Assembly: GCA_038322255.1 (NCBI GenBank)
Contig: JBBQFS010000001.1
Span: 11,729 to 75,728 of the forward strand
Source: Candidatus Limnocylindrales bacterium
Lineage (GTDB): Bacteria; Chloroflexota; Limnocylindria; Limnocylindrales; CSP1-4
Length of the DNA stretch: 64,000 bases
Reading direction: 5' to 3'
Made by a program: the position numbers and the translations under genes. Below are positions 10,261 to 25,090 of this stretch, piece after piece. The notes under the pieces were generated by a model. The model worked only from the letters and a program-made list of their open reading frames with translations. It was not told where the DNA came from and did not search any database. How positions within the stretch are numbered: position 1 is the stretch's first letter; every line of letters starts with the position of its first letter.

Positions 10261-11589
10261 ATGCTCGATGCCCTCGTCGCCGAAGCGACCGATCGCTGGG
10301 GCCTCGACGTCTCGGCCGGCATCCAGGTGGTCGCGGCGGAGCGCCTGCCCGCGACGCCGATCGAGGCCTCGCGACCGCTGCTGATCGTGCCCCTGGCAAT
10401 CCTCGCCGGGGTCGGGGAGCTCCCGCCACGGATGACCCCGCCCGCGAGCGCGCTGCCCGGGCGGCACGGGCCCGCCGGACGCGATCCGCTGGCCGTCCTC
10501 GGTCGGCTCTATCCGGCCGATGCCACGGTCGCGCGGCTCGGCGATCCCCCGGTCGGCGCCGGCGGTCTGCCCTCGGCCGGGCTCGAGGCCGGGCTCGAAG
10601 CCGGGACCGTCGCGGGCCTGACGGCCGACGACCTCCTCGGTCCGCTTTACCTCCCGCCGATCGCCCCCGAGCTCGCCGCCGCCGGCCCGTGGGCGATGCC
10701 ATATATCAGCGATCGTCTCCGCCAGCCCGACGGCTGCCCGTGGGACCGGGAGCAGACGCACGCCTCCCTTCGGAAGCACCTGCTCGAGGAGACGTACGAG
10801 GTGTACGACGCGCTCGAGGCTGGCGTCACGCCGGAGCTGGCGGAGGAGCTCGGCGACCTCCTGCTCCAGGTCGTGCTCCATGCCCAGCTGGCGGCCGAGG
10901 CGGGCGCGTTCGACCTGGCCGACGTCCAGGCGTCGATCGCCCGCAAGATCGTTCGCCGCCACCCCCACGTGTTCGGTGACGCCGTCGCGCGGACCGCGGC
11001 GGACGTCAACCGGCAATGGGAGCGGATCAAGGCCGAGGAGCGCGCCGAAGCGGCCGGATTGCCGGACACGGTCGAAGCTACCGACGCCGCCGACGCGCCC
11101 GACAACGAGGGTCGCGGCCGAAGCCACGCCGGGACCGCCGCCGGCTGGACGCCGAAGAGCGCCCTCGACGGCATCAGCAGGTCCATGCCCGCGCTCGCCG
11201 CGAGCCAGGAGATGCAGGAACGGGCGGCGGCCCTCGGCTACGACTGGCCGAACGTCGATGGCGTGCTCGACAAGGTCGCCGAGGAGCTCGGCGAGCTCGC
11301 TCAGGCGGCGTCCGCCGTGGACCGCCAGGAAGAGTTCGGCGACCTCCTGCTGGTCGTGGTGAACGTCGGGCGCAGGCTCGGCATCGAGTCGGAAGCGGCC
11401 CTGCGGGCGGCGAACGCCAAGTTCCGGGAGCGCTTCCGGCGGGTGGAGCGGATGGTCGCCGCACGCGGCGTCGCGATGCGCGACCTCGACTTCGCGACCC
11501 TCGACGAGCTGTGGGATGCTGCCAAGGCTGAGGAGCGGGCCGCAGCCGCGAGCCCGCCGCTGACCGTCGGGAGTGAGGACGTGCGATGA
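10261..11589 (+). CDS. mazG: Nucleoside triphosphate pyrophosphohydrolase MazG with an N-terminal extension domain
   Basis: Two MazG/EE..E. repeats ([30 protein letters not shown] and [25 protein letters not shown]). The extra N-terminal domain of about 150 aa resembles a degenerate YabN-type N-domain. Confidence 0.8.
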
Positions 11590-12323
11590 CCATCGGTAAT
11601 CGACCCCCGTCGGTGCGCGCCGACGGCCGGGGTCCGCGCGACCTCCGCCCGGTCATCATGACGCTGGGCGTGCTCAAATGGGCCGAGGGCTCGTGCCGCA
11701 TCCGCGCCGGCGACACGGAGGTCCTGTGCGCCGCGACCATCGGCGACCGGGTGCCGCCACACCTCCGCGGCAAGGGCACGGGCTGGGTCACGGCCGAGTA
11801 CTCGATGCTTCCACGCGCGACGGCGGAGCGGTCCGATCGCGAGTCGGTCAAGGGCCGGATCGGTGGTCGGACGCACGAGATCCAGCGCCTGATCGGGCGG
11901 TCGCTGCGTGGCGTGGTCGACCTCGCGAAACTCGGTGAGCGCACGATCACGGTCGACTGCGACGTCCTCCAGGCCGATGGCGGGACGCGCTGCGCCTCGA
12001 TCACGGGCGGCTACGTCGCACTCGCCGCGGCGCTCATGGGCGCGGGCCTGGAGCGGACGCTGATCGGCAAGGTTGCCGCGATCTCGGTTGGCATCGTCAA
12101 CGGCATCGAGGTGCTCGATCTCGACTATCCCGAGGACTCCCACGCCCAGGTCGACGCGAACGTGGTCGGGACCGACGCCGGGACCTATGTCGAGGTCCAG
12201 GCCACGGCCGAGGGCGTGCCCTTCGACCGGGCACGGATCGACTCCCTGCTGGACCTCGCCAACGAGGGCCTGGCTCGCCTGTTCGAGGCGCAGACGGCGG
12301 CGCTCGCCACGGTCCGCCGCTGA
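11586..12323 (+). CDS. rph: Ribonuclease PH
   Basis: ATGA overlap with the mazG stop. Full-length match to the RNase PH family (LRPV...[17 protein letters not shown]...[18 protein letters not shown]...[17 protein letters not shown]). Confidence 0.9.
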
Positions 12324-12379
12324 GCGGTCCGCCGCTCAGCCGTCGGCTGCCGAGCGGTCGGGGCCTGGCCGCCCGGTCG

Positions 12380-13003
12380 AAGCCACGCCTGGTCGTCGCG
12401 ACCCACTCGGAGCACAAGCTGGGCGAGCTCTGGGACCTGCTTCGCCTCGATGGCGTCGATCTGGTGTCGGTTGACGAGCTGGGCGTGCCGGGCGAGCCGG
12501 TCGAGGACGGCTTGACGTTCGAGACCAACGCCAGGATCAAGGCCCGGTTCGCCGCCCGGGCGACGGGCTTGCCGGCCCTCGCTGACGACTCCGGCCTGGA
12601 GGTCGATGCGCTCGATGGCGCGCCGGGCGTACGTACCCGGCGCTACGCCGGCGCCGACGCGACGGACGCGCAGAACAACGCGAAGCTGCTGCGCGAGCTG
12701 GCCGACGTGCCCCCGGACCGGCGCGGCGCGCGCTACGTCTGCGTCCTCGCACTCGCGATGCCGGATCCGGCAGCCCCCGGCGGGCTGCGGATCGTGACAC
12801 GCCGAGGCACGAGCCGCGGCCGGATCGCGACGGCGCCGCGTGGGCGGGGAGGCTTCGGCTACGACCCGCTGTTCGAGCCGGCCCGGGAGCGGCCGGGTGG
12901 GCGAACGTTCGGCGAATACGGCCGCGAGGAGAAGGATACGATCTCGCACCGCGGCCGCGCCGCGCGCCGGATGAGCCCGCTGCTTCGACGCCTCGAGCTC
13001 TAG
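12380..13003 (+). CDS. rdgB: Non-canonical purine NTP pyrophosphatase RdgB/HAM1 family (dITP/XTP pyrophosphatase). The 5' end is approximate because no canonical start codon is present.
   Basis: RdgB homology begins at about 12383 (PRLVVATHSEHKLGELWDLL...), upstream of the first GTG at 12464. Motifs FETNARIKARF...ADDSGLEVDALDGAPGVRTRRYAG and GRGGFGYDPLFEP are present. The frame is open upstream, but there is no ATG, GTG or TTG between the rph region and 12464. Confidence 0.7.
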   Translation, partial: KPRLVVATHSEHKLGELWDLLRLDGVDLVSVDELGVPGEPVEDGLTFETNARIKARFAARATGLPALADDSGLEVDALDGAPGVRTRRYAGADATDAQNNAKLLRELADVPPDRRGARYVCVLALAMPDPAAPGGLRIVTRRGTSRGRIATAPRGRGGFGYDPLFEPARERPGGRTFGEYGREEKDTISHRGRAARRMSPLLRRLEL

Positions 13004-13167: not shown

Positions 13168-13244
13168 CGGGGCGTAGCGCAGCCTGGTAGCGCACATGCT
13201 TTGGGAGCATGAGGCCGTGGGTTCGAATCCCACCGCCCCGACCA
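13168..13244 (+). tRNA. tRNA-Pro (anticodon TGG)
   Basis: Manual fold. A 7-bp acceptor stem (CGGGGCG/CGCCCCG), a D-arm GCGC-AGCCTGGTA-GCGC, an anticodon stem CATGC/GCATG with loop TTTGGGA (anticodon TGG), a T-arm GTGGG-TTCGAAT-CCCAC, discriminator A, and encoded CCA. Confidence 0.85.
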
Positions 13245-24799: not shown

Positions 24800-25090
24800 T
24801 TGACCCAGTACCACCTCGCCATCGACGAGGGCGATGTCGCCCCGACCGTCCTGATGCCGGGCGACCCCGGCCGCGTCCCGACTGGCACGCGTCTGGCGCC
24901 TGCGTGCCGGTGGGATCTCGGTCGTTCTCGATACGCCCGCAAGGTTTCGGCGAAGGGCGAGGAGTTCGACCCGGATACGCAGTTCGAGCACACCGCCTAC
25001 TCCATCCAGCGGCTCGCGCGGCTCGGCTGCGAGATCGTTCGCGAGCTGCACGAGCAGGACCAGCGCCGGGCCTCGCGCCCCGGAAGCTGA
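24800..25090 (+). pseudogene. Remnant ORF: the first 25 codons match the purine/uridine nucleoside phosphorylase (PNP_UDP_1, DeoD-like) N-terminus, then the homology ends
   Basis: GAGGAGG RBS, then a TTG start. MTQYHLAIDEGDVAPTVLMPGDPGR parallels the DeoD N-terminus (HI.AE.GD.A..VLMPGDPLRA). The remaining 70 codons have no PNP similarity. The ORF is 96 aa, against about 235 aa for a full enzyme. Confidence 0.35.

Follow-up and report, generated by a model that had tools for sequence, protein, structure and literature searches.

The DNA analysed here, referred to as the window, is a 64,000-nucleotide (nt) stretch of a Candidatus Limnocylindrales genome (contig JBBQFS010000001.1, positions 11,729 to 75,728), and the question concerns where translation of its rdgB gene begins, as no canonical start codon lies near the beginning of the conserved RdgB domain. 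The evidence points to a probable start at a CTG codon that overlaps the TGA stop codon of the preceding gene, rph (RNase PH), with initiation likely to occur by termination-reinitiation coupled to rph translation. Three lines of evidence carry this reading: the reading-frame phase between the rph stop codon and the RdgB domain is kept across related genomes, the first base of the CTG does not vary at a site that is otherwise free to do so, and other candidate start codons are absent or inconsistent. The features on which the argument depends are as follows.

11586..12323, + strand: rph, coding for RNase PH of 245 amino acids (open reading frame (ORF) list and Pfam), ending in CGC TGA at 12318-12323
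12320..12323, + strand: CTGA stop-start overlap, in which the proposed rdgB start codon CTG (12320-12322) shares bases with the rph stop codon TGA (12321-12323)
12320..13003, + strand: proposed full rdgB coding sequence (CDS), 227 amino acids from the CTG, with stop codon TAG at 13001-13003
12323..12388, + strand: N-terminal linker of RdgB, 22 codons, variable and of low complexity, rich in Ala, Arg, Gly, Pro and Ser
12389..12463, + strand: N-terminal 25 codons of the Ham1 domain, conserved, holding beta1, the T-x-S-x-x-K loop and alpha1
12464..12466, + strand: GTG, the first canonical start codon in the rdgB frame, at which the public 179-amino-acid annotation (P0001) begins

The missing canonical start of rdgB

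A preliminary description of this DNA had noted that rdgB lacks a canonical start near its domain, that RdgB homology begins at about 12383, and that the first canonical codon in frame lies within the conserved domain, and each of these observations was borne out. The rdgB frame is open from 11939 and contains no ATG, GTG or TTG until GTG 12464. The Pfam family Ham1p_like (PF01725) matches residues 24-219 of the CTG-initiated translation (E = 2.3e-56; profile positions 1-184 of 186), so that the match opens at residue 24, or nucleotide 12389 (LVVATHSEHK), and the GTG lies 25 codons into the domain when counted from that position. The N-terminus of Escherichia coli RdgB falls at the same place, with Q2-K3-V4 aligning to window residues 22-24 (structures 1K7K and 2PYU; 4e-44). 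The frame is also, as had been described, -1 relative to rph and open back through the rph 3' end.

For the missing start the preliminary description had offered three options, namely a non-canonical CTG, a -1 frameshift producing a fusion protein, and a 1-nt indel or sequencing error. The first of these was retained, with the codon placed at CTG 12320-12322, and the other two were not. Relatives were compared at 160 loci from species-representative genomes and metagenome contigs, and both the rph stop and the RdgB domain start were located in 113 of them. The window comes from a genome of 71% GC, and its nearest public proteins and loci all belong to Candidatus Limnocylindria (Chloroflexota), an uncultured class. 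Twenty loci besides the window, each from an independent assembly, share the CGC-TGA junction and the -1 placement of rdgB, and lack a canonical start between the rph stop and the LVVAT motif. Together with the window, these 21 are called the start-less loci below.

This comparison bears directly on the possibility that an indel or base error in the contig removed a canonical start codon. The source is a metagenome-assembled genome (MAG), and one relative, the long-read MAG locus L014, appears to carry an indel of this type; the same junction is nevertheless present in the 20 other independent assemblies. In addition, direct reading found no ATG, GTG or TTG in any frame of the window from about 12219 to 12449, and a single-base indel therefore could not restore one. 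We regard an error of this kind as scarcely credible.

In the public annotation, which covers this genome or one almost identical to it, rdgB starts at GTG 12464, the first canonical codon and the one chosen by a gene caller; this raises the possibility that the gene is truncated at its N-terminus, or is untranslated and decaying in this lineage. However, the 25 codons ahead of this GTG are conserved across the clade in the protein alignment and match the first strand, the Thr/Lys loop and the first helix of RdgB, and the first 15 domain codons show a ratio of nonsynonymous to synonymous differences (pN/pS) of 0.21 across 20 distinct start-less sequences. A protein starting at 12464 would lose beta1, the lysine of the phosphate-binding loop and alpha1 of the solved RdgB structures. 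About 30 members of the clade, diverged to roughly 65% identity, retain an intact full-length rdgB, and canonical starts near the position of 12464 are absent or inconsistent in relatives, with an ATG at codon +18 in L001, an ATG at codon +16 in L002, and none within the scanned +20 codons of L004. The upstream codons, conserved and under selection, are therefore translated, which places initiation upstream of 12389. We accordingly consider truncation or decay of the gene very improbable, and judge that the public 179-amino-acid annotation is itself truncated and that GTG 12464 is not the functional start. The correct rdgB CDS would instead be the 227-codon one given above, with CTG 12320 as its likely first codon. 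The NCBI annotation of two relatives (P0003 on L161 and P0016 on L163) begins rdgB at this same CTG, with a 4-nt overlap with rph. Two further measures were not retained: ungapped pN/pS downstream of the variable loop was set aside because some loci have indels there, and calling of gene starts by GC content at each codon position was dropped as too crude at this GC content.

Linker phase and the overlapping CTG in relatives

In the start-less loci, the rph stop and the domain anchor are 8, 23 (seven loci), 26 (two loci), 29 (four loci), 32 (four loci), 50, 62 or 116 nt apart. All eight lengths equal 2 modulo 3, and the linkers contain no in-frame stop codon. These lengths imply at least seven indels, a count that includes the window's own expansion of two 15-nt units and a repeat expansion in L022, and every one of them is a multiple of three, with a chance probability of about (1/3)^7 = 5e-4. 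The linker sequence itself is hypervariable across these loci, and its phase to the rph stop alone is preserved. Out-of-phase linkers occur in the clade members L087 and L131 and in the near-sister L133, each of which has its own ATG or GTG near the domain. L014 is the lone out-of-phase locus of the whole set without a start of its own. Its junction (2474-2500) reads TAGTG, its linker is 1 nt longer than that of its sister L018, and its RdgB domain is out of frame; an assembly error, an indel in a homopolymer, probably explains the extra base.

In a neighbor-joining tree of the RdgB proteins, the CTGA loci fall in one clade. Its sister clades have GTGA (18 loci, 4-nt overlap) or TAGTG (20 loci, 1-nt overlap) at the same junction, both of which supply a canonical GTG. 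Overall, the rdgB frame starts at the rph stop in 66 of 84 Limnocylindria loci (18 GTGA, 20 TAGTG, 27 CTGA and one TTGA). Because the sister clades hold GTGA or TAGTG there, the stop-overlapping position of the start is ancestral, and the CTG is the homologous codon in the clade of the window.

A GGAGG-like motif follows directly on the overlapping GTG in the TAGTG clade, and the in-frame CTG CT(C/T) GTC with which the domain starts lies about 11 nt beyond it. Immediately downstream of the rph stop, L016 and L007 both carry TAGTGGGGGAGG, and some 10 further loci of this clade share TAGTGGG.

In 13 of the 21 start-less loci, no codon between the rph stop and the domain comes within one mismatch of ATG except the overlapping CTG. 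This count weighs on the alternative that ordinary 30S binding initiates translation at some other non-canonical linker codon. The window offers three more in-frame CTGs for such a role, at 12347, 12365 and 12389, the last of which coincides with the first codon of the domain, a position occupied by an in-frame GTG in several relatives (P0008, P0031 and P0049; L003 and L083). These codons are not conserved, however, as those 13 loci have no near-cognate codon besides the overlapping one, and position 12389 is CTC rather than CTG in most relatives. No Shine-Dalgarno (SD) sequence precedes CTG 12347, 12365 or 12389, and internal initiation would leave unexplained both the constant phase of the linker to the rph stop and the invariant C of CTGA. 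Initiation at one of these codons is unlikely.

The invariance of this C can be measured, as it is also the third base of the last rph codon (Arg, CGN) and so occupies a four-fold degenerate site. The base is C in 30 of 30 distinct rph tails of the clade. Within the last 50 rph codons there are 18 other four-fold sites, at which the modal base reaches a frequency of 0.50-0.78. Parsimony on the clade tree places 5-13 changes at each of them (mean 7.5), compared with none at the final-codon site, an outcome with a Poisson probability of 5.5e-4. The same site varies normally (C13, G5, A3) in the TAGTG clade, whose start codon does not include this base. Because the base is invariant in the CTGA clade while the other four-fold sites and the TAGTG-clade site vary, we take the C to be constrained by something beyond rph coding. 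An internal Leu codon in a hypervariable linker gives no reason for a frozen C. Any change of this base would make ATG, GTG or TTG and presumably raise RdgB synthesis, and the frozen C suggests that the weak start is kept by selection. It is conceivable, though we put this forward only tentatively, that CUG is selected and not just tolerated, either because it fixes a low ratio of RdgB to RNase PH or because reinitiating ribosomes of these bacteria accept CUG well.

Two other base-composition signals were not used. The base periodicity of the pooled linkers (chi-square p = 0.006) is skewed by codon 2, whose A is fixed by the TGA. Canonical start triplets around the junction, counted in all frames, stood at 0.85 versus 2.08 per 100 nt, and this depletion, though real, was rejected as specific evidence because the GTGA clade is similar without its real starts and because it is partly built in by the selection of the group.

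The same rph tails bear on a programmed -1 frameshift near the end of rph, which would produce an RNase PH-RdgB fusion of about 470 amino acids. Such an event would be in keeping with an rdgB frame that, in every locus, is -1 and stays open through the 3' end of rph; the window has a hairpin just downstream of the junction, and in-frame Rph-RdgB fusions do exist in Clostridia-type MAG loci. However, a search of the last 59 rph codons in all 21 start-less loci showed no X_XXY_YYZ heptamer, and the final codons vary freely at synonymous sites, which leaves no conserved signal at the nucleotide level. The possible stimulatory hairpin belongs to the window alone, among linkers that run from 8 to 116 nt with variable sequence, and a tRNA-Arg on CGC would be unable to re-pair in the -1 frame (CCG or GCG). 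A GC content of 71% leads one to expect long open alternative frames, and an internal Leu codon in such a linker would not be expected to hold an invariant first base. We consider frameshifting highly unlikely.

For coupled initiation at CTG 12320, the following course of events is proposed. A ribosome finishing rph would terminate at UGA, and this ribosome, or its 30S subunit, would reinitiate one base upstream on CUG with initiator tRNA and without an SD sequence. The product would be the 227-residue RdgB, with a poorly conserved tail of 22 residues ahead of the Ham1 domain, and the linker would owe its translation solely to the anchoring of the start at the rph stop. The weak codon may be kept so that RdgB output stays low. 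Initiation on CUG and its dependence on rph translation are the steps that we infer. No SD-like sequence was found upstream of the CTG in any start-less locus, and a junction of this kind accords better with reinitiation by the ribosome that has just terminated than with independent binding of a 30S subunit.

Several points weigh against this proposal. The lack of an SD sequence upstream of the CTG means that the model leans entirely on reinitiation, and CUG is a poor initiator in E. coli, where initiation factor 3 (IF3) discriminates against it. The three out-of-phase loci that have their own starts (L087, L131 and L133) also keep CGC-TGA, and the C could be constrained in another way, for example by the context of rph termination. 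For this genome alone, the further in-frame CTGs at 12347, 12365 and 12389 are possible starts. As an NTG arises from any base before TGA, the presence of CTG at this place is uninformative when taken alone, and what carries the argument is that the frame is conserved, the C does not vary and alternatives are lacking. Finally, the organism is uncultured, and its proposed CTG start derives from sequence comparison.

Repeat, hairpin and neighboring genes

Two further features overlap the junction in the window.

12310..12359, + strand: 15-nt tandem repeat in 3.3 copies, consensus CGGTCCGCCGCTGAG (repeat search; Tandem Repeats Finder (TRF) score 65)
12319..12340, + strand: perfect hairpin GCTGAGCGG/CCGCTCAGC with a 9-bp stem and a 4-nt loop, enclosing the CTGA

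Both had been recognized in the preliminary description, which placed the rph stop within a hairpin having a 9-bp stem and reported a 15-nt duplication. The hairpin is exact (12319-12327 / 12332-12340), and the duplication is real and in its fuller extent forms the 3.3-copy array. The array spans the rph 3' end, the stop and the proposed start, is in frame, and adds about 10 amino acids to the linker. It is absent from all relatives compared, the nearest of which have linkers of 23-32 nt. The hairpin is a by-product of repeat copies 1 and 2, as the unit CCGCTGAGCGG is nearly palindromic and copy 2 has a G-to-C change. On its own it folds at -16.7 kcal/mol, and the region 12290-12400 folds no better than shuffles of the same composition (z = -0.8). 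Among the 21 start-less loci it is present in the window only. The repeat and hairpin are thus recent, lineage-specific and outside the conserved arrangement, and they would at most add to the dependence of the CUG on unfolding by the rph-translating ribosome.

Linkers have grown independently by tandem repeats in other loci as well, with the units EPGEAEPGT in L022, APSSAS in L013 and one of about 27 nt in L131. The expansions in L022 and L013 are in phase with the rph stop, and that in L131 is out of phase in a locus with its own ATG. The rph-rdgB junction, including that of the window, appears to be prone to short tandem duplication.

The window carries three + strand genes head to tail, namely a mazG-like pyrophosphohydrolase gene (10261..11589), rph and rdgB. 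The ATG of rph overlaps the stop of the mazG-like gene (ATGA, 11586-11589), and the rph product has both RNase PH domains (Pfam RNase_PH, PF01138, 1.3e-26; RNase_PH_C, PF03725, 1e-06). Two house-cleaning pyrophosphatases of the nucleotide pool, MazG and RdgB, are in this way chained with RNase PH by 4-nt overlaps across 10261-13003, in what would be a single unit linked at the level of translation. A tRNA-Pro gene (anticodon TGG) lies at 13168-13244 on the + strand, 165 nt downstream of rdgB, and no terminator-like or sigma-70-like sites were found between 11400 and 13300.

Within the RdgB protein, the substrate-binding loop T-x-N-x-x-K reads ATHSEHK in the window (12398-12415), with the Thr and Lys present and Ser at the Asn position. 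The same Ser for Asn replacement in the RdgB/inosine triphosphatase (ITPase) loop is shared by the window and at least 90% of 30 aligned homologues, mostly from Limnocylindria (consensus ATRSxHK versus ATGNVGK in E. coli).

Scope and comparison with known systems

A scan of the 64-kb window for other NTGA junctions with coding-like sequence on both sides returned two further CTGA sites, at 25087 (+) and 27605 (-). The genes there have a plausible ATG 9 and 18 codons further on, respectively, the latter with an AGGGAGG SD sequence, and no CTGA junction besides rph-rdgB lacks a canonical downstream start in the window. Because both of the other junctions have plausible canonical starts, CTG initiation is not a general habit of this genome.

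For annotation, the consequence is that gene callers limited to ATG, GTG and TTG cut RdgB short in this clade, and the truncated forms lose the N-terminal strand and the phosphate-binding loop. Several homologues of 183-198 amino acids may have been shortened likewise. The position of the CTG on a four-fold site of the overlapping rph provides a neutral yardstick that few non-canonical bacterial starts allow, and this yardstick suggests that non-canonical starts can persist stably at stop-start overlaps. If a weak CUG is indeed selected here, the junction would offer a natural, phylogenetically replicated system for the study of start-codon strictness in termination-reinitiation.

Nothing specific was found in the literature on rph-rdgB coupling or on Limnocylindria start codons. 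The two components of the proposal are individually established. Among coupled genes, NTGA overlaps are the spacing seen most often, and an SD sequence is not indispensable for coupling (PMC12548453; PMC6728339). CUG initiation in E. coli proceeds at 1-2% of the level of AUG (10.1101/063800), and peptide-supported evidence exists for a conserved CTG start of RpsL in Deinococcus-Thermus, with a CTG start also known for RepA (PMC2830850). As both NTGA coupling and CUG initiation are already known, rdgB is a well-supported new example and not a new mechanism. What might be noteworthy is the evidence that a weak CTG has stayed unchanged while its lineages diverged substantially, although a canonical start lies only one synonymous change away.

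The same two enzymes occur in the same order as one translational unit in Clostridia/Bacillota MAGs (L042, L067, L071 and L072), where RNase PH and RdgB share a single in-frame ORF of about 430-436 amino acids from the first Met. Unlike these fusions, the window genes are split by the TGA at 12321 and by a -1 frame change, with no frameshift signal. Programmed -1 frameshifting, as in dnaX and insertion sequence (IS) elements, resembles the window arrangement in its -1 downstream frame and in the hairpin after the junction. It differs in that the window has no slippery heptamer, a hairpin that is not conserved, and no upstream conservation at the nucleotide level.

Closer likenesses are found among the NTGA ('-4') coupled pairs of E. 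coli and Haloferax (Huber et al. 2019, PMC6728339; PMC12548453), as rph and rdgB are co-directional, have a 4-nt TGA/NTG overlap and would need no separate SD sequence, and as sister clades of the window's organism hold canonical GTGA or TAGTG at this junction. The NTGA pairs that have been studied and catalogued use ATG, GTG or TTG; at rph-rdgB, by contrast, N is C, giving a non-canonical CUG, and the coupling is one that we infer. The conserved CTG starts of bacteria, described for rpsL in Deinococcus-Thermus, Deide_03051 and plasmid RepA (Baudet et al. 2010, PMC2830850), share with rdgB a conserved segment that precedes the first canonical start, a CTG that is kept across orthologues of the clade, and a protein that automatic annotation truncates. 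Those cases are supported by peptides, whereas for rdgB the proposed codon comes from sequence comparison. Unlike them, the rdgB CTG overlaps the stop codon of an upstream gene, and its conservation can be measured against the synonymous sites of that overlapping gene.

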